Assembly (NCBI GenBank): GCA_040879385.1
Contig: JBBDKM010000096.1
Coordinates: 62,751-126,750 of the forward strand
Length of the DNA stretch: 64,000 nt
Direction of reading: 5' to 3'
DNA from: Thermoanaerobaculia bacterium
GTDB lineage: Bacteria; Acidobacteriota; Thermoanaerobaculia; UBA5066; Gp7-AA6
Below, one piece after another: positions 1-11,850 of the stretch (position 1 is the stretch's first letter; each line of letters begins with the position of its first letter). The notes beneath the pieces are model-generated. The model was not told the origin of the DNA. It searched no databases and saw nothing but the letters and a program-made list of their open reading frames with translations. The translations under genes and the position numbers were made by a program.

Positions 1-13
1 CAGGTTGAGGGGG

Positions 14-493
14 TCAGCGTTTCCCGGCGGCGATCGTGATCTTGAACCCGTCGGGGTCGGTCAGAGAGATGTCGCGCACGCCCCAGGGCTCGTCGGTCGG
101 TCCCTGGTCCAGCCTGCCGCCGTTCGCCTCGATCCGCTTCGCGAGGTCGTCGACGTTCTTCGTCGTCATGCAGAAGATGCGGAAGCCCTCTCCCTTTTTC
201 CGGTCGCGTCCCTTCTTCCAGTCGTCCTGCGCGATCATGAAGGACACCTCGCCGGCCCGGAGAGAGACGCCGACGACCCTTCCTGCGTCCTTCCAGGTCT
301 CCTCGACAGCAAACCCGAGGACGTCGCGGTACCACGCGAGGCTCTTCTCTAGGTCGTTCACCGTGAAGCTCGGCGACGCATCGCTCAATGCCAGCGACCG
401 CGTTGCGGTGCCGGACTTTCTGGGCGCGGCCTTCGCCTTGGCGGGAGATTTCTTCTTCGCACGAACGGTTTTCGCGGGCTTTCTTGCAGCCAT
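14..493 (-). CDS. VOC (glyoxalase/bleomycin-resistance fold) family protein with Lys/Ala-rich N-terminal tail
   Basis: 159-aa ORF. The C-terminal ~120 aa shows the VOC pattern (FTVNDLEKSLAWYRDVLGF ... GFRIFCMT ... PWGVRDISLTDPDGFKITI). GGAGG lies 7 nt upstream of the ATG. Confidence 0.8.
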   Translation of the reverse strand: MAARKPAKTVRAKKKSPAKAKAAPRKSGTATRSLALSDASPSFTVNDLEKSLAWYRDVLGFAVEETWKDAGRVVGVSLRAGEVSFMIAQDDWKKGRDRKKGEGFRIFCMTTKNVDDLAKRIEANGGRLDQGPTDEPWGVRDISLTDPDGFKITIAAGKR

Positions 494-647
494 GTCTTTG
501 CCTCCAGGGGGAGGAGGTTATCAGGACTGACCCAACTCGCTCCGATTCTCGGTCAGGAAATGTCGGAAGCCTGTCTCCGGAGGCGTCCTGCCGAGTTGCC
601 GCAGCATGTGGACCACCTGGCCGCGGTGATGAGTCGAGTGAGTCAGG

Positions 648-1607
648 ATGTTCTGGATGAGCTCTCCCAGAACGTACGAATCTCTTCTCGAGGGGCACTC
701 CCGGGCGATCCGCGTCTTCGACGCGTTTCCCCTGTTGCGAGCCGACGGCAGCGTTCTCTACTGTCTGGCGCTCGAGTACGCGAAGCACGGCGACCTGCGG
801 TCCTATCTCCAGCGCACCGGGAAGGGGTGGGCCGAGAAGACCGCGCGGCGCGAGATCGCGGGGATTCTCGAGGTCCTCGGAAAGCTCCATCGAGGTCAGA
901 TGCTCCACCGAGACCTGACTCCGATGAACGTCTTCGTCTGCGACGGCGTGAGCTTGAAGCTCGGGGACTTCGGCATCGTGCGGCATCAGAGCGATCGGCG
1001 TGGCATCGACGCGCGCACGTTGAACCCGTGGGGAGTCCCGAGCGACATCCTCGCGGGCACGGCCCCCAAGTGGCAGGCGCGCGACGACGTCTATCAGGTC
1101 GGGCAGCTCCTGGGAATGCTCGTGAAGGGAACCGCGGCGGCCCGGATTCGCACCGGCGAGGTCCGGCGCCTGCGCTGCACCGATCACCTCAAGGAGATCG
1201 TCTATCGCTGCATCGGCGAGCGCCGGAAGCGGTACGAGAGCGCCCAGGAGCTGATCGACGCGCTGACCCATCCGCCCGCAGCGCTGAAGGTCGGACGGCT
1301 GCGGACACTCAAGGGAGCACATCTCGCCTTCACCGGCATCCTGACCAGGCGCCGCAGCGAGGCCGCCCGCGCCGCGCGCCGAGCCGGAGCGATCGTCCAC
1401 GGCGCGCCTTCTGCTCGAACGACCGTCGTCGTCCGAGGCCGGCCGAACCCGCTTCAGGCCGCCGGCAGAGACGCGGGCATCAAGCTCATCCAGATCAAGC
1501 ACCTTCGCGAGAAAGGGCACCGGATTACTCTGTTGAACGATACGCAGTTCTGGCGGCTGGCGGGCCGAAAGTTGCGCTCGGCTGGAGTCGGCTCGCCGCG
1601 CGGCTAG
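648..1607 (+). CDS. Ser/Thr-kinase-like catalytic domain lacking the N-lobe, fused to a C-terminal BRCT domain
   Basis: HRDLTPMNV catalytic loop, DFG, and a DDVYQVGQLL-type C-lobe are present. No Gly-rich loop or VAIK lysine is present. An in-frame TGA at 639-641 blocks any 5' extension. The C-terminus (LKGAHLAFTGIL...TTVVVRG...ITLLNDTQFWRL) matches the LigA-type BRCT pattern. Confidence 0.7.
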   Translation: MFWMSSPRTYESLLEGHSRAIRVFDAFPLLRADGSVLYCLALEYAKHGDLRSYLQRTGKGWAEKTARREIAGILEVLGKLHRGQMLHRDLTPMNVFVCDGVSLKLGDFGIVRHQSDRRGIDARTLNPWGVPSDILAGTAPKWQARDDVYQVGQLLGMLVKGTAAARIRTGEVRRLRCTDHLKEIVYRCIGERRKRYESAQELIDALTHPPAALKVGRLRTLKGAHLAFTGILTRRRSEAARAARRAGAIVHGAPSARTTVVVRGRPNPLQAAGRDAGIKLIQIKHLREKGHRITLLNDTQFWRLAGRKLRSAGVGSPRG

Positions 1608-1729
1608 CCTCCGTCCGACGTTCCGGGCCCGTTGCCTCCTGGCATTTTTTGGCATACGATTGATTTGCGCCTCGCGCCGCCGGCAATCCCGCCTCCGTAC
1701 GACGAAGCGACATCAGGAGTCTCAGGATC

Positions 1730-2182
1730 ATGGACAACCCCGCAGTGGAGAGAAGGTTGGAAGTTCGATTCGATGAGCGGGAGGACTGGGGTCGAGGCCT
1801 CTGGGTCTCCCACTTGTATAACGTCACTGAGGCCGCCGATTTCGTCGCGGGTCGCGGGAAGGCGAAGACGTTCGATTCGGCGCTCCTCGTCGTTGCCGTT
1901 CAGACTCCCCGATGGGGCGAGCCTCGTGCCACGTATGACGGCGCTCAGCAGCTTCCCGAGGTGGCCGCGATCATGGCCTCCCATAAGGACTGGTCCCTCG
2001 TGGCCGAGCTGGCCGACGGAAAGTGGACGGCGTCCTTCCTGGCGGGCGGGACGGTGGTCGGAAGCTTCACCGACGAGCGCGCGTACGAAGCCATCATCAG
2101 GGCTTTCGACGGCGCGATCGTCGCGGCCGGGGGCGCTTGGTGGGGCGACGGTCGCAGACCCGGCGCACCGACCTCGGCTTAG
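1730..2182 (+). CDS. hypothetical protein (no recognisable motif)
   Basis: 150-aa ORF co-directional with its neighbours, with AGGAG about 10 nt upstream of the ATG. I recognise no family signature. Confidence 0.45.
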   Translation: MDNPAVERRLEVRFDEREDWGRGLWVSHLYNVTEAADFVAGRGKAKTFDSALLVVAVQTPRWGEPRATYDGAQQLPEVAAIMASHKDWSLVAELADGKWTASFLAGGTVVGSFTDERAYEAIIRAFDGAIVAAGGAWWGDGRRPGAPTSA

Positions 2183-2251
2183 ACGGGCGCCGCAGCGCCC
2201 GCGAGCGCTGACCCGACGCGTACAAACCACTTCTGCGACAATCGTTCAGAG

Positions 2252-3100
2252 TTGGATCCGCTTCCACGGCTGACCGACGATGGCCTGCTCACCCCGGAGG
2301 TCGGGGACTGGGCCGAGGAGAAGTACCAACACGTCCGGTACTACGCTGACCTCTTCGCGCGATCGATGAGCAAGAAGTGGAAGAACCGAGCCTACGTTGA
2401 CCTCTTCGCGGGCGCTGGCCGATCCCGGATCCGAGGGATGACGAGCATTCTTCCCGCATCGCCAACCATCGCGCTCGGGCTTCCGTTCACGCGCTACGTG
2501 TTCTGCGAAGGGGACCCTAAGAAGCTCTACGCGCTGACTCAACGCAGGAGACGCGATTTTGACAAATCGCGCGCGTGGTTCGTTTCTGGCGACGTGAATG
2601 AGGCGACCGACGAAATTCTCGCGCAGCTCCCGGTCCCCTCGGACGGGGGCCTCTTGACGTTTTGTCTCGTTGACCCGTACGCTATGTCCAACCTCCGCTT
2701 CGAGACGATCCGTCGGCTCTCGGAGCGTTGGATCGACTTCCTCGTTCTCGTCCCCTCCGGCCAAGACTTCCAACGCTGGCGCGAGGAGAAGTACATGGAT
2801 CCCGCGGATCGCGTCGTCGAGGAGTTCCTCGGGGACCCGAATTGGCGAAAGGCGTGGCACGTCTTTCCGAAGCAGGACCGCAAGAATGGCGCCTCAGAGT
2901 TCATCGCCGATCGTTTCGGCCAGCAAATGGCTTCGCTGGGATTTATCTACAAGGGTCTTGATGTGGCGAGGGTCGTGCGCTCGACCGACAAGAACCTTCT
3001 CCTCTATCACCTGCTCCTGTTCAGCAGAAAAGAGCTGGGCGCGTCGTTCTGGAAAACAACCTTGGACAACGTCAACCCTCAGAGGGAATTGGGCTTCTGA
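2252..3100 (+). CDS. three-Cys-motif partner protein TcmP family (methyltransferase-fold-like)
   Basis: 282 aa with a TTG start. The family-typical N-terminus (GDWAEEKYQHVRYY), YVDLFAGAGRS (SAM motif-I-like) and FCLVDPY (motif-IV-like) are present. It lies immediately upstream of, and overlaps by 1 nt (TGATG), a Gp37/Gp68 gene, which is the defining pairing of this family. Confidence 0.75.
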   Translation: MDPLPRLTDDGLLTPEVGDWAEEKYQHVRYYADLFARSMSKKWKNRAYVDLFAGAGRSRIRGMTSILPASPTIALGLPFTRYVFCEGDPKKLYALTQRRRRDFDKSRAWFVSGDVNEATDEILAQLPVPSDGGLLTFCLVDPYAMSNLRFETIRRLSERWIDFLVLVPSGQDFQRWREEKYMDPADRVVEEFLGDPNWRKAWHVFPKQDRKNGASEFIADRFGQQMASLGFIYKGLDVARVVRSTDKNLLLYHLLLFSRKELGASFWKTTLDNVNPQRELGF

Positions 3101-3840
3101 TGTCCGACAAGTCCAGCATCGAATGGACGGACGCCACGTGGAACCCGGTGACGGGTTGCACGAAGGTTTCCCCGGGCTGTAAGCACTGCTACGCGGAGAC
3201 GTTCGCCGAGCGGTTTCGCGGGGTTCCCGGCCATCCCTACGAGCAGGGATTCGACCTGAAGCTCTGGCCGGGGCGGCTCGCCGTTCCGGCTCGCTGGAAG
3301 TCGCCGCGGATGATCTTCGTCAATTCGATGAGCGACCTGTTCCACGAGAAGGTGCCGGATGCCTTCATCGAGCAGGTGTTTCATGCGATGGCCTCGGTGC
3401 CAAGGCACACGTTCCAAGTACTCACGAAGAGAGCGGACCGACTTTCCGCGTGGCACGAGTCGCATCAGGAGTTCTGGAACCTTCCAAATGTCTGGCTCGG
3501 AACCTCGGTCGAAGATCGGCGCTATGGACTGCCGCGGATTCCGTTCGTGCGCTCACTTCGCTCGGCGGTGCGGTTCCTCTCGGTAGAGCCGCTCTTGGAG
3601 GACCTCGGCCCCTTAAGCCTCGACCGGATCGATTGGGTCATCGTCGGGGGTGAGAGCGGACACGGAGCTCGGCCCATGAGGCCGGAGTGGGCTCTCTCCG
3701 TCCGTGATCAGTGTGAAGCCGCCGGCGTGCCCTTCTTCTTCAAGCAGTGGGGCGGGGTCCGGAAGAAGGCGGCGGGCCGTACTCTTGCCGGTCGGACCTG
3801 GGATGAGATGCCGTCTCGTATCGCATCGGCGTTCGCGTAG
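3100..3840 (+). CDS. phage Gp37/Gp68 family (DUF5131) three-Cys-motif protein
   Basis: The N-terminus SSIEWTDATWNPVTGCTKVSPGCKHCYAE is the hallmark of the family (C-x6-C-x2-C). The C-terminal FFFKQWGG motif is also present. Confidence 0.85.
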   Translation: MSDKSSIEWTDATWNPVTGCTKVSPGCKHCYAETFAERFRGVPGHPYEQGFDLKLWPGRLAVPARWKSPRMIFVNSMSDLFHEKVPDAFIEQVFHAMASVPRHTFQVLTKRADRLSAWHESHQEFWNLPNVWLGTSVEDRRYGLPRIPFVRSLRSAVRFLSVEPLLEDLGPLSLDRIDWVIVGGESGHGARPMRPEWALSVRDQCEAAGVPFFFKQWGGVRKKAAGRTLAGRTWDEMPSRIASAFA

Positions 3841-3933
3841 GAGGGCGATCCGGAACCATCAGAGTCAGGATGGGAGAAAGCGGGTCCCACGGCGCGGCCG
3901 GTAGAACTCTCTTGCGCTCGCGCTTTCTCTTGC

Positions 3934-4821
3934 CTATTTCGTCGAGGGTGGATCTTCGGGTGCGACAGCAACGACCGGTTTCCTGCCGCCCCACTCGTCT
4001 TGCTTGTCCTTCAGGTACGCAATGGTCTCGTTTATTGCGTCCACGGTGTGGACCCAACCCAAGCCCGAGTTCTCGATGAAGGTGATCCGCGGCTGCAGCG
4101 GGTTCAAGCTGTAAGCATTCTCGGCGTACGGTACGTAGCCGTACACGATTCCGATGAGAACCGAAGAGAGCTGATGCTTTGTGCCCGGAATCGCAAGACC
4201 TTCAGGACGCAGGATCACAGGCCCCCCGCTGTTGCCCGGAAAGACGTTCGCGTCTACCAAGAAGGTTTTGGAGTTGCTCGAGTAGGTATCCCTCAGCCGG
4301 GCGACGACTCCCCCCCTTACGATTACGGTGTTGCGGGTGTCTCCGACCAATCCCAGTGGGAAACCGAGCACGTAGATGCCGTCTCCATCGGACACCCCGA
4401 GAACATCCTTCATTTCCAAAAGTGTCGCCGCTTGCCCGTCGTTCTGGAAGAACGCCGGATGTAGCCCATTCTTCTCAAGCATGGCTGTCGAAAGGGTCGT
4501 CGCGGCGACGTCGACCTCGGGATCGGGATGGGCAACGAACACCGGCCACCCTGTGGGTGCGCGGGTCGCGATTGGAAACTCGACCCAGCTCTCGCGGTCT
4601 AGGCTATTGAACCGTATCAACGCCGTGTCGCCGATTCGTTCAGCGACGTGCCGATTGGTGATTAGGAACAGCTGGTACTTGCCCGGCTGCCCTTCCGGAA
4701 CTGGATCGCCTGTCCTGAGCCCGTAGTAGAAGCCGGTTCCGAAAAAGGCCTTCTTGCCTTCGGCGTTGATCTCGCCGACTGCGACTACCGCGTCCAGGAA
4801 AAGCGGTGGAAGGAGCCCCAC
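3934..4821 (-). CDS. trypsin-like (S1/PF13365-type) serine peptidase, no signal peptide
   Basis: Catalytic triad context is present: TNRHV (His), EVDVAA (Asp), GNSGGPV (Ser). The N-terminus is not signal-peptide-like. Confidence 0.8.
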   Translation of the reverse strand: MGLLPPLFLDAVVAVGEINAEGKKAFFGTGFYYGLRTGDPVPEGQPGKYQLFLITNRHVAERIGDTALIRFNSLDRESWVEFPIATRAPTGWPVFVAHPDPEVDVAATTLSTAMLEKNGLHPAFFQNDGQAATLLEMKDVLGVSDGDGIYVLGFPLGLVGDTRNTVIVRGGVVARLRDTYSSNSKTFLVDANVFPGNSGGPVILRPEGLAIPGTKHQLSSVLIGIVYGYVPYAENAYSLNPLQPRITFIENSGLGWVHTVDAINETIAYLKDKQDEWGGRKPVVAVAPEDPPSTK

Positions 4822-4903
4822 GCTGGGCGAGTCTAAGACTTGTCAGCGAACGGTTGCCCTCCGACCGCCACTCCAGCACATGCACCCTCAAGGCCAAGAA
4901 ACG

Positions 4904-4929
4904 GAAGCGCCTGATCTCTCAGGCGCTTC
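4904..4929 (-). terminator. hairpin downstream of nrdJ (candidate intrinsic terminator)
   Basis: Perfect 11-bp stem GAAGCGCCTGA/TCAGGCGCTTC with a 4-nt loop. On the minus strand it is followed by CGTTTCTTGG. Confidence 0.5.
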
Positions 4930-4996
4930 AGGCAGTTAGCCGCGAACGAGTTGGAGCGGGAAAGGGAGTGTCGACCCCCTTGTACGCGATCTGTCT

Positions 4997-7786
4997 CTAA
5001 CTACACCCGCTCGTCGCGCCGCAGTTCAGGCACTTGTAGCACGCCGCTGACCGCACCATGATCGAGCCGCACTCGTGGCAGGCCGGGGCGTCGGTGGACG
5101 TCTCGAACATCAGCTTCAGCGTCTCGGAACCGCCCGCCCGCGCGGCCACGGCCTGCTCGGTCACCGGCACGGGTCCGTTCGCGCCGGTGTCGCGGGCGAT
5201 GATCCCCACGGCCTCCTTCTCCTCGGCGGTCATGAACTTGGAGGCGAGCCACTTGAAGATGTAGTCGATGAGCGACTTGGCGATCGGGATCTCGGGGTTC
5301 TTGGTGAAGCCCGAGGGCTCGAACCGCACGTGCGAGAACTTGTTGACCAGCGCCTCGATCGGCACGCCGTACTGGAGAGTCAGCGAGACGGCCGTGGCGA
5401 AGGCGTCCATGAGGCCGGAGATCGTCGAGCCTTCCTTGGACATCCGCAGGAAGATCTCGCCGGGCTTGCCGTCCTCGAAGAGACCGACCGTGACGTAGCC
5501 CTCGTGTCCGGCGACCGAGAACTTGTGAGTGATCGAGCGGCGCTCGTCGGGAAGCTTGCGGCGGAAGGGCGCCGGCACCGGGGGCGTGGCCTTGCCCACG
5601 TACTCGAGCGAGGTGCGCGCGGTTGGGGTCTTGGAGTCGGACTTCGAGGCCGCGGTGTTCAGGGGCTGCGTGCGCTTGCAGCCGTCGCGGTAGATCGCGA
5701 TCGCCTTGAGCCCCTGCTTCCAGCCCTCCATGTAGACGCCGGCGATGTCCTCGGGGCTCGCGTCGGGCGGCAGATTCACCGTCTTCGAGATCGCGCCGGA
5801 GAGGAAGGGCTGCACGGCCGACATCATTTTCACGTGGCCCATGTAGTGGATCGAACGCGTGCCGTTCAACGCCCGGAACGCGCAGTCGAAGACCGGCAGG
5901 TGCTCGGGCTTGAAACCCGGCGCGCCCTCGATCGTGCCCTTCTCGTCCACGTAGTCCACGATCGTGTTGATCGCGCCCTCGCCGTACCCGAGGCGCTTCA
6001 ACGCGAGGGGCACGGTCTGGTTGACGATCTTGATCGTGCCGCCGCCGACGAGCTTCTTGTACTTGACGAGCGCGAGGTCCGGCTCGACCCCCGTCGTGTC
6101 GCAGTCCATCATGAATCCGATCGTCCCGGTCGGCGCGAGCACCGTGACCTGGCCGTTCTTGTAGCCGGCCTGCGTGCCCGACTCGAAGGCCGCGTCCCAA
6201 ACGGCGAGCTGCGCCTTGTAGAGCTCCGCCGGGACGCCCCGGGTCGGGACCTCGTAGGCCGCGTGGCGGTGCATCCCGATGACCTCGAGAAAGGCCTCGC
6301 GGTTGGGCGGGTAGCCGGCGAAGGGGCCGAGCTCCGCGGCGACCCGCGAGGACTGAAGGTACGCCTCTCCGCACATGAGGGAGGTGATCGCGGCCGAGTG
6401 CGCGCGTCCGTCCTCGGAGTCGTAGGGAACTCCCGCCGCCATCAGCAGCGCGCCGAGGTTGGCGTAGCCGAGGCCGAGCGGCCGGAACTTGTACGAGTTC
6501 TCGGCGATCGCGGGCGTCGGGTACGAGCAGTTGTCGATGAGCATCTCCTGCGCCGTGATCATGACGTCGACGGCGTGGCGGAACGTCGCCACGTCGAAGG
6601 AGCCGTCCTCGACGTTGAAGAACTTCATCAGGTTGAGCGAGGAGAGATTGCACGCGCTGTCGTCGACGAACATGTATTCGGCGCAAGGATTCGACGCGTT
6701 GATCCGGTGCGTCGACTTGACCGGGTTCCAGCGGTTGATCGTCGTGTCGTACTGCATGCCCGGGTCGCCGCAGACCCACGCGGAGTCCGCGATCCTGCTC
6801 ATCAGGTCGCGCGCCTTGTAGGTTTTGTAGGGCTGGCCCGTCAGGACTTCCTTCGTCTGCCACTCTCCGTCCTTCTCGACGGCTTCCATGAACTCGTCGG
6901 TCACGCGGATCGAGTGGTTCGCGTTCTGATAGAAGATCGACGCGTACGCCTCGCCATTGAACGAGCCGTCGTAGCCGGCGTCGATGAGAGCCCAGGCCTT
7001 CTTCTCTTCGTTCGCCTTGGAGATGACGAACTCCTCGATGTCGGGATGGTCGATGTTCAGGATGACCATCTTCGCGGCGCGCCGGGTCTTGCCGCCGGAC
7101 TTGATCGCGCCGGCGAACGAGTCGAAGCCCTTCATGAAGGACAGCGGGCCCGAGGCCGTGCCGCCGGCCGAGAGGCTCTCGTGCGAGCCGCGGATCGAGG
7201 AGAGGTTCGACCCGGTCCCCGAGCCGAACTTGAAGAGCATGCCTTCGGTCTTGGCGAGCGAGAGGATCGAGTCCATCGAGTCGCCGCAGGAGTTGATGAA
7301 GCAGGCCGAGCCCTGGGGCTTCTTCTCGATCCCGACGTTGAACCAGACGGGGGAATTGAAGGACGCGACCTGGTTGACGAGGATCGCGGCGAGCTCGTCG
7401 TGGAACGCGTCGCGGTCGGCGGCGGTCCGGAAGTACCCGCCCCGCTCGCCGTACCCGGTGATCGTTCCCGCCACGCGCTCGATCAACTGGCGCACCGAGG
7501 TTTCGCGCTCGGGGGTGCCGAGCCGCCCGTGAAAATACTTCTGGACGACGATGTTCGTCGCGGTCTGCGACCAGGACCTCGGGACCTCGACGTTCTTCTG
7601 CTCGAAGATCGTCTCGCCCTTCTCCGACACGATCGCGGCCGTGCGCAGCTCCCACTCGATCGCGTCATAGGGCGAGATCGTCGGGTCCGAATAGATCCGC
7701 GGAAACTTCAGCCCCTTGAGAGTCCTGCCCGCCTCCCGGGCTTCTACCCCGGCGGCCTCTTTCATCCCCTTCTCCGTCGCACTCAT
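4997..7786 (-). CDS. nrdJ: adenosylcobalamin-dependent ribonucleoside-diphosphate reductase (class II)
   Basis: 929 aa with long-form NrdJ architecture, conserved blocks (NPCAEY, TNIVVQKYF) and a C-terminal CxxC...CxxC zinc ribbon. A strong GAAGGAGGAGG RBS precedes it. Confidence 0.95.
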   Translation of the reverse strand: MSATEKGMKEAAGVEAREAGRTLKGLKFPRIYSDPTISPYDAIEWELRTAAIVSEKGETIFEQKNVEVPRSWSQTATNIVVQKYFHGRLGTPERETSVRQLIERVAGTITGYGERGGYFRTAADRDAFHDELAAILVNQVASFNSPVWFNVGIEKKPQGSACFINSCGDSMDSILSLAKTEGMLFKFGSGTGSNLSSIRGSHESLSAGGTASGPLSFMKGFDSFAGAIKSGGKTRRAAKMVILNIDHPDIEEFVISKANEEKKAWALIDAGYDGSFNGEAYASIFYQNANHSIRVTDEFMEAVEKDGEWQTKEVLTGQPYKTYKARDLMSRIADSAWVCGDPGMQYDTTINRWNPVKSTHRINASNPCAEYMFVDDSACNLSSLNLMKFFNVEDGSFDVATFRHAVDVMITAQEMLIDNCSYPTPAIAENSYKFRPLGLGYANLGALLMAAGVPYDSEDGRAHSAAITSLMCGEAYLQSSRVAAELGPFAGYPPNREAFLEVIGMHRHAAYEVPTRGVPAELYKAQLAVWDAAFESGTQAGYKNGQVTVLAPTGTIGFMMDCDTTGVEPDLALVKYKKLVGGGTIKIVNQTVPLALKRLGYGEGAINTIVDYVDEKGTIEGAPGFKPEHLPVFDCAFRALNGTRSIHYMGHVKMMSAVQPFLSGAISKTVNLPPDASPEDIAGVYMEGWKQGLKAIAIYRDGCKRTQPLNTAASKSDSKTPTARTSLEYVGKATPPVPAPFRRKLPDERRSITHKFSVAGHEGYVTVGLFEDGKPGEIFLRMSKEGSTISGLMDAFATAVSLTLQYGVPIEALVNKFSHVRFEPSGFTKNPEIPIAKSLIDYIFKWLASKFMTAEEKEAVGIIARDTGANGPVPVTEQAVAARAGGSETLKLMFETSTDAPACHECGSIMVRSAACYKCLNCGATSGCS

Positions 7787-9963: not shown

Positions 9964-11052
9964 TTACGACGGCAGCTTTTTCTTGGCCACGTCGAGCGTG
10001 TTGAGGACTTGCGGCTCTCGCTGCATGACGTTCACGCCGTAGCCCTTCTTGGTGATGAATTCCACGTCGACCTGCTGAAACGGGGTGCCCTTCGGGAGCA
10101 GCTCCTTGCGGTAATGCCAGACCTCGCGCCAGTTGTTGCCGGGGTCGGGGGCTCGGGTTCCGGGGCCGCCGAACTGAGCGGAGACCGTCGCTCGCGTCGC
10201 GGAGGACGCCTTGCCGGCGAGCGCGCGTTGCGCGTTGGCCGCGTCCTGCGAGCCCTCGGTCGAGAGCCCAGCCGAGTCGGCGACGTCCTCGCCCGTCCGG
10301 ATGGGCTTGCGCCCGGCGTAGGTCGGAGGCCCGAGGAGAACGAACACCATCCCGCGGTCCGTGACGCTGCCGCGCCGTTTCTCGTCCTGGACGAAGTTCG
10401 CGTCGGCGAACGCGACGCGCCGCTCGAAGGTCGTGCGGAACGTGTTGTCGCTCGTGCCCGGCCGGGGATTGCGCGCCTCCCAGAACTTGTCGATGAACTC
10501 GACTCGTTCCGATCCGGCGGCGAGCTCCGACCACTGGCGCTTCTCGGCGGACGTCATCAGCCACTTGATCGGGCCCTCCCCCCACCGCTCATCCGGCGGC
10601 GCACCCAGGTTGGCGGGCGCCTTGAACTCCTGGTAGGCGGTGAAGAGAGACGGCGCGGCGTCGAGGTCCGCGGGAGGCGCCGTCTTCTTTCTGGCCGCCT
10701 CGAACGCGGCGACGGCCTTCTTCGAGTACATCGCGGGATCTATCGTCGCGCCCGGATTGGCCTGCAGGAAGGCCGCGAAGTCGGCCTGGGCTTTCTCGGC
10801 CTCGCCCAGGTTCGCGTCGCACACGCCGCGGTAGAACGCGACCGGTCCCTGGAGCTGGCTGCGGACGCTCTCGTTGCCCGGTTTGACGGACTCCGTATCG
10901 AGCGCGTCGAGCGTCTTGCGCGCGTCCTGCCAGGCGCTCGCCTTGATCTGCTGTTTGGCGGTTTGAAAGAGCTCGGGAATGGTCTGGGTAGCCTGGGCGG
11001 CGAGGACCCCGGAGAGGAACAGGGCGGCGAGGAAAAGCACCGAGCGCTTCAT
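9964..11052 (-). CDS. GWxTD-domain protein, secreted
   Basis: The start at MKRSVLFLAALFLSGVLAAQA is a signal peptide. FIDKFWEARNPRPGTSDNTFRTTFERRVAFADANF ... GSVTDRGMVFVLLGPP matches the GWxTD family pattern with W replaced by S. The upstream 264 codons of the track ORF are antisense to actA. Confidence 0.8.
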   Translation of the reverse strand: MKRSVLFLAALFLSGVLAAQATQTIPELFQTAKQQIKASAWQDARKTLDALDTESVKPGNESVRSQLQGPVAFYRGVCDANLGEAEKAQADFAAFLQANPGATIDPAMYSKKAVAAFEAARKKTAPPADLDAAPSLFTAYQEFKAPANLGAPPDERWGEGPIKWLMTSAEKRQWSELAAGSERVEFIDKFWEARNPRPGTSDNTFRTTFERRVAFADANFVQDEKRRGSVTDRGMVFVLLGPPTYAGRKPIRTGEDVADSAGLSTEGSQDAANAQRALAGKASSATRATVSAQFGGPGTRAPDPGNNWREVWHYRKELLPKGTPFQQVDVEFITKKGYGVNVMQREPQVLNTLDVAKKKLPS

Positions 11053-11071
11053 GGCAGGACCTCCGCCGCCG

Positions 11072-11077
11072 ATTCTA
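11072..11077 (-). promoter_or_regulatory. -10-like TAGAAT upstream of the GWxTD gene
   Basis: TAGAAT on the minus strand, followed by 19 nt containing GGAGG, then the ATG at 11052. Confidence 0.4.
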
Positions 11078-11171
11078 CGTCCGGGTGCGCCCTCCGGCGC
11101 CAGCGATTCGGGACCGGGCCTCGGCTTCCCCTGCGGGCAGGTCGACTTCCCCTGCAGGGCGGGAGGGAGTT

Positions 11172-11183
11172 GCAATATATTGC
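11172..11183. promoter_or_regulatory. AT-rich perfect palindrome GCAATATATTGC containing a TATATT -10-like box upstream of actA
   Basis: 12-bp perfect palindrome flanked by complementary GGGAGGG/CCCTCCC. TATATT (11176-11181) lies 9 nt before the actA GTG. Confidence 0.4.
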
Positions 11184-11190
11184 CCTCCCC

Positions 11191-11850
11191 GTGGCGCAGA
11201 TCTTCCACCGCAGCACGAATACCATCTCGCGGGTTTCGGTGTTCGGGGCCGTTTTCTTTCTCGGCCTCCTCCTCTGGCTCTTCGACGCCCTGAACCGCTC
11301 CCCCTACACGACCCAGCAGGGGGTGGCCCGGGTCCAGCCGGTCCAGTTCTCCCACCAGCACCACGTCGGTGCCATGGGCATCGACTGCCGGTACTGCCAC
11401 ACGACGGTCGAGCGCGCGGCTTTCGCGAACATCCCGCCGACAAAGACCTGCATGAACTGCCACTCCCAGATCTGGAGCCAGTCCCCGGAGCTCGAGGCGG
11501 TTCGGGAGAGCTGGCGCACCGACCGGTCGATCCCGTGGGTCAAGGTCTACGACCTGCCCGACTACGTCTACTTCAACCACTCGATCCACGTCGCCAAGGG
11601 CGTGGGCTGCGAGACCTGCCACGGCCGCGTCGACCAGATGCCGCTGGTGTCGCAGCACCCGACGCTCCAGATGAGCTGGTGCCTCGACTGCCACCGGGAG
11701 CCGGAGAAGCACCTGCGTCCCCGGGACCAAATCTTCACGATGGGCTACGTGCCCGCCGGCAACCAGGAGGAGATCGGGCAGGCGCTGAAGGCGGAGTACC
11801 GCCTCCGGTCGACGTTCGAGCTGACCGATTGCACGACATGCCACAGGTAG
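11191..11850 (+). CDS. actA: alternative complex III subunit ActA (pentaheme cytochrome c)
   Basis: The GTG start gives MAQIFHRSTNTISRV plus a TM helix. There are five CxxCH motifs (CRYCH, CMNCH, CETCH, CLDCH, CTTCH). It is the first gene of the act cluster. Confidence 0.9.
   Translation: MAQIFHRSTNTISRVSVFGAVFFLGLLLWLFDALNRSPYTTQQGVARVQPVQFSHQHHVGAMGIDCRYCHTTVERAAFANIPPTKTCMNCHSQIWSQSPELEAVRESWRTDRSIPWVKVYDLPDYVYFNHSIHVAKGVGCETCHGRVDQMPLVSQHPTLQMSWCLDCHREPEKHLRPRDQIFTMGYVPAGNQEEIGQALKAEYRLRSTFELTDCTTCHR

Follow-up and report, generated by a model that had tools for sequence, protein, structure and literature searches.

The PDC-M30, PDC-M41 and PDC-S45 families are among 145 candidate phage-defence systems compiled from genes that sit inside BREX, DISARM and type I restriction-modification (RM) loci, and these PDC systems are explicitly untested candidates (bioRxiv 10.1101/2024.01.29.577857). 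PDC-M41 consists of a TcmP gene and a gene of the DUF5131 (Gp37/Gp68) family. DUF5131 has been listed as a subgroup of the radical S-adenosylmethionine (SAM) enzymes and as a sister of the spore photoproduct lyases (SPL) (PMC9477430). In Sinorhizobium meliloti a TcmP gene adjoins the defence gene Hna and is grouped with it in a putative transcriptional unit (PMC12445080). Here we describe a locus of a Thermoanaerobaculia bacterium (assembly GCA_040879385.1) that carries candidates of both families. It occupies positions 648-4821 of the window, by which we mean the whole analyzed stretch of 64,000 nt (contig JBBDKM010000096.1, positions 62,751-126,750), and lies between a VOC gene on the left and nrdJ on the right. 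The initial annotation had taken the five genes of this locus for one accessory cassette resembling anti-phage or DNA-modification islands. We find instead that the locus is, with little room for doubt, a composite of a damaged resident kinase gene, a mobile three-gene module and a separate protease gene. The stretch is a further instance of a known, uncharacterised two-gene family residing in a small mobile module. Most likely, we infer, the two enzymes TcmP and DUF5131 together modify a nucleic-acid base in a SAM-dependent manner, in the service of phage-host conflict. For the composite anatomy and the proposed mechanism taken jointly we estimate a probability of about 0.6.

All five genes of the initial annotation exist. 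The four co-directional ones are separated by gaps of 122, 69 and -1 nt, the last being a TGATG overlap of the TcmP stop and the DUF5131 start at 3098-3102, and the calls of TcmP, of a three-Cys Gp37/Gp68 protein and of a convergent, signal-less trypsin-like protease agree with the family matches. The features of the locus are, in window coordinates:

14-493, minus strand: VOC/glyoxalase-family gene (PF00903, 71.8 bits), left flank, outside the module
598-688, no strand assigned: deletion junction, where an 85-nt remnant is joined straight to kinase codon 87
648-1607, plus strand: kinase-like gene, a 5'-truncated kinase-BRCT remnant (Pkinase, 58.9 bits)
1577-3856, plus strand: mobile unit (orf150, TcmP, DUF5131), including a leader of its own upstream of orf150; a near-identical copy is present on contigs L164 and L170
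1633-1729, plus strand: conserved orf150 leader, with TTGCCT-17 nt-TACGAT and a GGAG ribosome-binding site
1730-2182, plus strand: orf150, encoding a small protein of no Pfam, NCBIfam, PADLOC or PHROG family
2252-3100, plus strand: TcmP gene with a TTG start (TIGR04474, 108.6 bits)
3100-3840, plus strand: DUF5131 (Gp37/Gp68) gene (PF07505, 335.9 bits)
3934-4821, minus strand: gene for a trypsin-like protease (Trypsin_2, 42.9 bits)
4904-4929, minus strand: terminator-like hairpin downstream of nrdJ (consensus scan: 11 pairs, then a T-rich tail)
4997-7786, minus strand: nrdJ, resident right flank, 87% identical at the amino acid level to NrdJ of the relative L081, with synteny going on beyond

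The neighbourhoods of the DUF5131, kinase and nrdJ genes were surveyed in 80 loci each, for DUF5131 the best 80. None of the DUF5131 loci carries a homologue of the kinase-BRCT gene, of orf150 or of the protease gene, and conversely none of the kinase-BRCT loci carries TcmP, DUF5131, orf150 or the protease. The initial annotation had itself named a lack of co-conservation as the observation that would speak against its cassette; since the five genes are not co-conserved in other genomes, the cassette has to be given up. A single anti-phage or DNA-modification system, with the kinase-BRCT protein as sensor or signalling component, the pair as modifier and the protease as effector, would fit the physical adjacency of the genes, the common direction of four of them, the generic matches that the kinase domain has to mad6, PD-T4-6 and similar defence kinases, and the presence of two PADLOC candidates. 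We nevertheless consider it extremely improbable, because the reciprocal tests gave zero of 80 both ways, the kinase is resident, truncated and of normal composition, and the copy of the module on L164/L170 has neither kinase nor protease. Adjacency and deviant composition had suggested one system, which falls into three unrelated pieces when the neighbourhoods are tested reciprocally. What stands of the likeness to a defence island is the presence of two independent units, which are the candidates PDC-M41 and PDC-S45.

The median G+C content at third codon positions (GC3) is 0.90 (standard deviation 0.05) for 50 open reading frames (ORFs) of the window. A lower GC3 had been reported for the entire cassette, and this holds for orf150 (0.79), TcmP (0.77), DUF5131 (0.79) and the protease gene (0.73), which are low compared to the 46 other ORFs (Mann-Whitney p = 0.0007), but not for the kinase gene, which at 0.84 is near the window norm.

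Several classes of Acidobacteriota, with at least 80 species in all, have orthologues of the kinase-BRCT gene, with identities of 71-93% and 408 matching stretches. The orthologues in the 80 species are full-length (387 amino acids), every one starting near residue 1, and the flanks of these full-length genes (loci L174-L253) show almost no synteny, their 335 downstream ORFs falling into 243 clusters. Within the genome collection, the nearest relative found was L081, a metagenome-assembled genome (MAG) from the Acidobacteriota; it shares the resident nrdJ and the synteny on the far side of this gene. There, nrdJ is separated by 438 nt from a convergent, full-length kinase-BRCT gene of 387 codons with a complete N-lobe (GQGGFG, VAIK), and orf150, TcmP, DUF5131 and the protease gene are all absent from this nrdJ-kinase site. 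Nucleotide homology between the locus and L081 is limited to window 684-1569 (91.4%, kinase residues 87-385) and resumes at 4996. Taken together, these comparisons show that the kinase-BRCT gene is the resident gene of this lineage, damaged here, and no cargo of a cassette. The full-length protein is unusually conserved and looks like an unstudied signalling protein in its own right.

The fusion of kinase and BRCT domains that had been annotated was not borne out in full. The window protein contains only the C-terminal two thirds of the kinase domain, covering positions 71-211 of the 263 positions of the Pkinase profile (1-204 for the L081 protein). It still has the HRD motif, the DFG motif, the C-lobe and a BRCT-like tail, but the Gly-rich loop, the VAIK lysine and helix αC are gone, so that the protein lacks a complete Pkinase catalytic domain (Gly-rich loop, VAIK lysine, subdomains I-III). 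The tail matches the BRCT profile PF00533 below the cutoff (18.2 versus 21.3 bits, E = 0.003, profile positions 6-75 of 78) and shows weak matches also to the BRCT-bearing C-termini of LigA and PRK06195. In-frame stop codons are located immediately 5' of the ATG at 648. Judged by its sequence, the remnant would be unable to bind ATP in the manner of a canonical kinase.

The junction could be traced in the relatives. Window 598-682 aligns to L081 18161-18245, and the alignment then jumps to the L081 kinase gene at about 683-688. In relatives, the sequence of this 85-nt remnant is found some 0.4 kb 5' of the kinase gene, and in L081 it lies at the 3' end of a DinB-like ORF. Window 13-678, including the VOC gene, aligns to L205 4880-5594, and the intact kinase gene of L205 starts at 6001; in L183, L205 and others, the sequence that precedes the full-length kinase gene is 78-89% identical to the VOC flank at the nucleotide level. 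Comparison of the interval between L205 5594 and the kinase start at 6001 with the window indicates that about 0.66 kb is missing from the latter, comprising codons 1-86 and the region 5' of them.

The second copy of the module is found on contigs L164 and L170, which come from the same sequencing run and overlap by exactly 25 nt. Window 1577-2433 is present there at 92.5% and window 2409-3856 at 96.8% nucleotide identity, and both flanks of the copy are unrelated to the window and to every fetched locus. The left end of the unit, at 1577, coincides with the end of the L081 homology at 1569, and the right end lies 16 nt past the DUF5131 stop. These data show that the 2.28-kb module 1577-3856 with orf150, TcmP and DUF5131 was acquired horizontally. 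It is the sole movable unit of the stretch; since its right end is at 3856, the protease gene lies outside of it. The lower-GC3 accessory segment as defined relative to L081 is longer and comprises 1570-4995. This difference of 3.4 kb could in principle be due to a deletion in L081, the four genes then being ancestral, and the direction of change does rest on few genomes, as only one close relative has nrdJ adjacent to the kinase gene. Such a deletion is improbable, though, given the deviant GC3 of the four genes, the occurrence of 1577-3856 between unrelated flanks elsewhere at 93-97% identity, and the spread of the closest DUF5131 relatives over many phyla at 58-68% identity. A further gene is encoded at L170 1646-2989 (minus strand), convergent to the second module copy; it comprises at least 447 codons, and its product contains the motifs HHLFP and RNEIAH. 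From these motifs a nuclease of the HNH (His-Me) or HEPN type was suspected, but it found no support, with no match in Pfam or PADLOC.

The description of orf150 as an orphan was nearly right. A search of 5.8 billion proteins gave two close homologues besides the window protein itself, one with 89% and one with 64% identity. A few distant small homologues exist as well. The ratio of nonsynonymous to synonymous substitutions (dN/dS), calculated against the two close homologues, is 0.30 and 0.22, showing that orf150 is under purifying selection. Linkage of orf150 to TcmP is seen in the near-identical copy on L164 only; the 64% homologue on L165 stands alone, without TcmP, and orf150 is absent from L166-L169. 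The leader of the gene is kept in L164 and partly in L165. A consensus scan of window 400-5200 called no sigma-70 site; the leader resembles one weakly, at 8 of 12 positions, and the orf150 promoter is a putative one, proposed from conservation only. A scan of metagenomes with a 22-nt motif of the leader found nothing. By its selection and its conserved leader orf150 is a real gene, which accompanies this module copy as an accessory passenger. Matches in the PDB to designed repeat proteins were spurious (0 matched stretches), and a weak similarity of the C-terminal half to DUF5122 beta-propeller repeats was judged uninformative.

The protease has an intact catalytic triad, with His in NRHV (56), Asp in EVDVA (102) and Ser in GNSGGP (196). 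Its catalytic domain begins at about residue 10, which leaves no space for a signal peptide. It matches PADLOC PDC-S45 (E = 2e-25, residues 19-273 on profile positions 30-286 of 293) and phrog_7688 (E = 3e-26). Close relatives are very few, with one genome match at 34% identity, and distant homologues (24-35% identity) were found on 22 plasmids of unrelated bacteria; tblastn gave no match in phage genomes, despite the match to a PHROG profile. The family is sparse and patchy. As the gene lies beyond the right end of the module and has no homologue in the surveyed DUF5131 loci, it is a stand-alone gene for a predicted cytosolic trypsin-like protease, which forms an independent unit between the module and nrdJ.

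The conservation of the remaining two genes is of a different kind. In the surveyed loci, DUF5131 relatives with 58-68% identity occur across Acidobacteriota, Myxococcota, Planctomycetota, Verrucomicrobiota, Chloroflexota, Nitrospirota and others, and a TcmP-like gene directly adjoins DUF5131 in 59 of the 80 loci according to an iterative hidden Markov model (HMM) search and in 69 according to BLAST clustering. The usual order is that of the window, a short TcmP gene upstream of DUF5131, and no other recurrent neighbour of DUF5131 was found in these loci. Three of the 11 loci without a TcmP-like gene, L010, L043 and L049, lie at the end of a contig. At least three further ones (L007, L059, L073) appear to lie beside IS110/IS21 transposase or serine recombinase genes, as read by eye from ORF N-termini, which suggests disrupted pairs in mobile contexts. 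The nearest relatives of TcmP (81%, 63%, 53% and 53% identical) are all accompanied by DUF5131, and all lack orf150, the kinase-BRCT gene and the protease gene. These results show that TcmP and DUF5131 are the conserved core of the module, translationally coupled via the TGATG junction. A search of metagenomes with the TcmP protein found nothing.

Several relatives of the pair lie in contexts of mobility or conflict. Toxin-antitoxin genes flank it in L168 and L169. DUF5131 is very widespread and almost always coupled to a TcmP partner: at least 8000 scored candidates all matched, and the family is present in 180 phage records and in many bacterial phyla. The temperate Gordonia phage Fairfaxidum (L172 3492-5433) encodes a DUF5131 protein (gp42) and, convergent to it, a "methyltransferase" (gp43) that is recognised by the TcmP HMM (E = 4e-39); both genes are located between the integrase gene and the immunity repressor gene. 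In actinobacteriophages this interval is the usual site of lysogen-expressed genes. In L166 (1205-1552) and L167 (1425-1778) a conserved ORF of 115-117 codons is located upstream of the pair in place of orf150, and its product resembles the excisionase-type family HTH_17 weakly, below threshold (18-19.5 bits).

For neither TcmP nor DUF5131 was a usable sequence match obtained in the PDB, be it with single proteins or with profiles, and structural models were therefore compared. TcmP exceeds the TIGR04474 cutoff of 53 bits twofold and is aligned with residues 19-273 to positions 1-261 of the 263 profile positions. Its AlphaFold2 (AF2) model, with a mean predicted local distance difference test score (pLDDT) of 94.9, has a class I Rossmann SAM-methyltransferase-like fold. 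The best PDB matches are RlmJ/DUF519 structures (6qdx, 4blu), with a template modelling (TM) score of 0.51-0.54 and a probability of 1.0, followed by generic SAM methyltransferases; there are 144 PDB matches at E <= 1e-3, and of the best 50 in the list 49 belong to SAM-dependent methyltransferases or to proteins closely related to them. A fold search in BFVD returned generic viral methyltransferases only. The conserved D50-L-F-A-G-x-G56, a glycine-rich SAM motif I, stands right after predicted strand β1, and an invariant D141 and a near-invariant P142, then Y, stand right after predicted strand β4.

As TcmP matches no solved structure better than the 23S rRNA N6-methyladenine (m6A) methyltransferase RlmJ, the pair might modify rRNA or tRNA, for instance by combining an RlmJ-like with a Cfr/RlmN-like ribosome modification that confers resistance to antibiotics or toxins or tunes translation. 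Radical-SAM rRNA methylases exist, namely RlmN and Cfr, and mobility would fit a resistance gene. However, the active site of RlmJ itself resembles that of DNA m6A methyltransferases (PMC3814359), the nearest predicted fold of DUF5131 is that of SPL, a DNA enzyme, and the pair lies in immunity regions of phages and was also picked up within BREX, DISARM and RM loci. We therefore regard RNA as a rather unlikely target.

DUF5131 matches PF07505 over the full profile length, far above the threshold of 28.9 bits, and phrog_2045 with E = 8e-103. Invariant in alignments of 33 and 59 sequences are C20, C27 and C30 (Cx6Cx2C), G183-G-E-S-G187 and C205. The sequence thus predicts a three-Cys enzyme of the radical-SAM superfamily, with a GGE motif for SAM binding and a putative [4Fe-4S] site. 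In the PDB comparison of its AF2 model (pLDDT 84.9), SPL structures take all of the first six ranks. With TcmP as a helper, DUF5131 could accordingly be imagined as a DNA repair enzyme that reverses a lesion or an alkylation as SPL does: the two are sister radical-SAM subgroups, and soil hosts are exposed to desiccation and UV. Such an enzyme, however, would need no obligate partner with a methyltransferase fold, the patchy, mobile and phage- or defence-linked distribution is unlike that of housekeeping repair, and the SPL-type CxxxCxxC spacing is not conserved. A repair function is thus unlikely. Viperin is present among the weaker structural matches of the DUF5131 model, and a viperin-like pair would make a small-molecule or nucleotide product. 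Prokaryotic viperins are antiviral radical-SAM enzymes that act on free nucleotides, and several of the fold matches of TcmP are small-molecule methyltransferases. Nevertheless, the best matches of both proteins are base-flipping nucleic-acid enzymes, and in the 80 loci the pair has no associated gene for a transporter, a kinase or nucleotide metabolism, making a product of this type just as unlikely as a role in repair.

The modification of a nucleic-acid base by the TcmP-DUF5131 pair could proceed as follows. TcmP, with its RlmJ-like Rossmann fold, would bind SAM and recognise the target base, which it would probably flip and methylate. DUF5131, as an SPL-like radical-SAM enzyme, would then generate a 5'-deoxyadenosyl radical for a second step on the same base. 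This order of methylation and radical elaboration would resemble wybutosine synthesis, in which a SAM methyltransferase, Trm5, and then a radical-SAM enzyme, TYW1, act on one base. The outcome would be a base modification, most likely of DNA: the predicted fold of DUF5131 is SPL-like, the pair occurs in phage and defence contexts, and RlmJ has been described to have an active site like that of DNA methyltransferases. The modification would serve in conflicts of the host with phages or mobile elements, either as a self-mark that protects against restriction or as an anti-phage function, and orf150 and the protease would be independent accessory passengers. Taken by itself, this mechanism has in our estimate slightly less than an even chance of being correct. 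We are more doubtful about a bolder version, in which the pair writes a previously undescribed radical-SAM-dependent hypermodification of DNA bases that decides on phage infection or restriction, with orf150 as an add-on for specificity or regulation.

Several observations weigh against the composite history or the base-modification mechanism. TcmP deviates from motif IV of the N6-adenine methyltransferases, (D/N)PP(Y/F/W), as its D-P-Y is one proline short, and RlmJ, its top structural match, acts on rRNA and not on DNA. DUF5131 is only weakly similar to SPL (TM 0.42-0.50, E ~1e-3). No experiment, substrate, product or phenotype for TcmP or DUF5131 was found in the searchable literature, so that substrate and product are entirely deduced. 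In the 80 loci no restriction or effector partner is conserved beside the pair, and a defence mechanism is consequently not evident from the genes. Around 1577-3856 and 1570-4995 there are no direct or inverted flanking repeats, att-like sites, integrase or other recombinase genes, and the movement of the module is thus not explained by any such element at the locus. Finally, the truncated kinase gene shows no relaxed selection, its dN/dS against L081 being 0.22 compared to 0.16 for nrdJ; the loss may therefore be recent, or the remnant may have a non-catalytic role.

Since a five-gene system does not exist, there is nothing new at that level, and the interest lies in the biochemistry of TcmP and DUF5131 in general and not in this particular locus. 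The pairing of an RlmJ-like with an SPL-like protein provides a concrete hypothesis of a two-step base modification. If true, it would add new chemistry to the epigenetic marks used in phage-host conflict.

On the right flank, the hairpin at 4904-4929 is strong and sits in a segment without homology to L081, suggesting that the 3' end of nrdJ was remodelled along with the insertion. In an unrelated MAG (L022 8973-14307) a TcmP-DUF5131 pair is convergent to an nrdJ gene (49% identical) across a gap of about 590 nt, which mirrors the arrangement in the window. A functional link between nrdJ and the pair was rejected, as none of the 80 nrdJ loci carries DUF5131, and the arrangement was attributed to chance or to an insertion hotspot. 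Elsewhere in the window, 9964-11844 (minus strand) is the sole further ORF with an island-like low GC3 (0.78) and may be foreign or atypical; the source annotation has a shorter GWxTD-domain protein at this position.

Among the described systems, PDC-M41 is the one to which the pair corresponds: PADLOC assigns PDC-M41A to TcmP (E = 6.7e-17) and PDC-M41B to DUF5131 (E = 4.7e-106), both HMMs scoring above threshold on adjacent and overlapping genes. PDC-M30 shares the DUF5131 family, but its TcmP (PDC-M30A) is longer, with about 390 amino acids, and encoded downstream of DUF5131. Compared to both, the window copy has the additional upstream orf150, which was seen at one other place only. The protease, in turn, matches PDC-S45 and phrog_7688 over nearly its full length and is a candidate for this system. 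The only NCBIfam match of DUF5131 is Radical SAM mobile pair protein A (TIGR04471), which likewise belongs to a mobile two-gene radical-SAM pair; at 87.6 bits, far under the family cutoff of 355, DUF5131 is related to this family and not a member of it.

With RlmJ, which methylates 23S rRNA at m6A2030, TcmP shares the Rossmann fold and the acidic-Pro motif after β4 (RlmJ 164-DPPY-167, TcmP D-P-Y), at 13-15% identity; RlmJ acts alone, and on rRNA. In the models, the nearest fold of DUF5131 is that of the radical-SAM DNA lyase SPL (4fhc and others), with which it appears to share three cluster cysteines and the SAM-binding core, yet it is no member of the SPL family. The two are 10-12% identical, DUF5131 is about 100 residues shorter, its cysteines are spaced Cx6Cx2C instead of CxxxCxxC, and it has an obligate partner with a methyltransferase fold. 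The likeness to Trm5 and TYW1 is an analogy of logic and not homology, the substrate there being tRNA.

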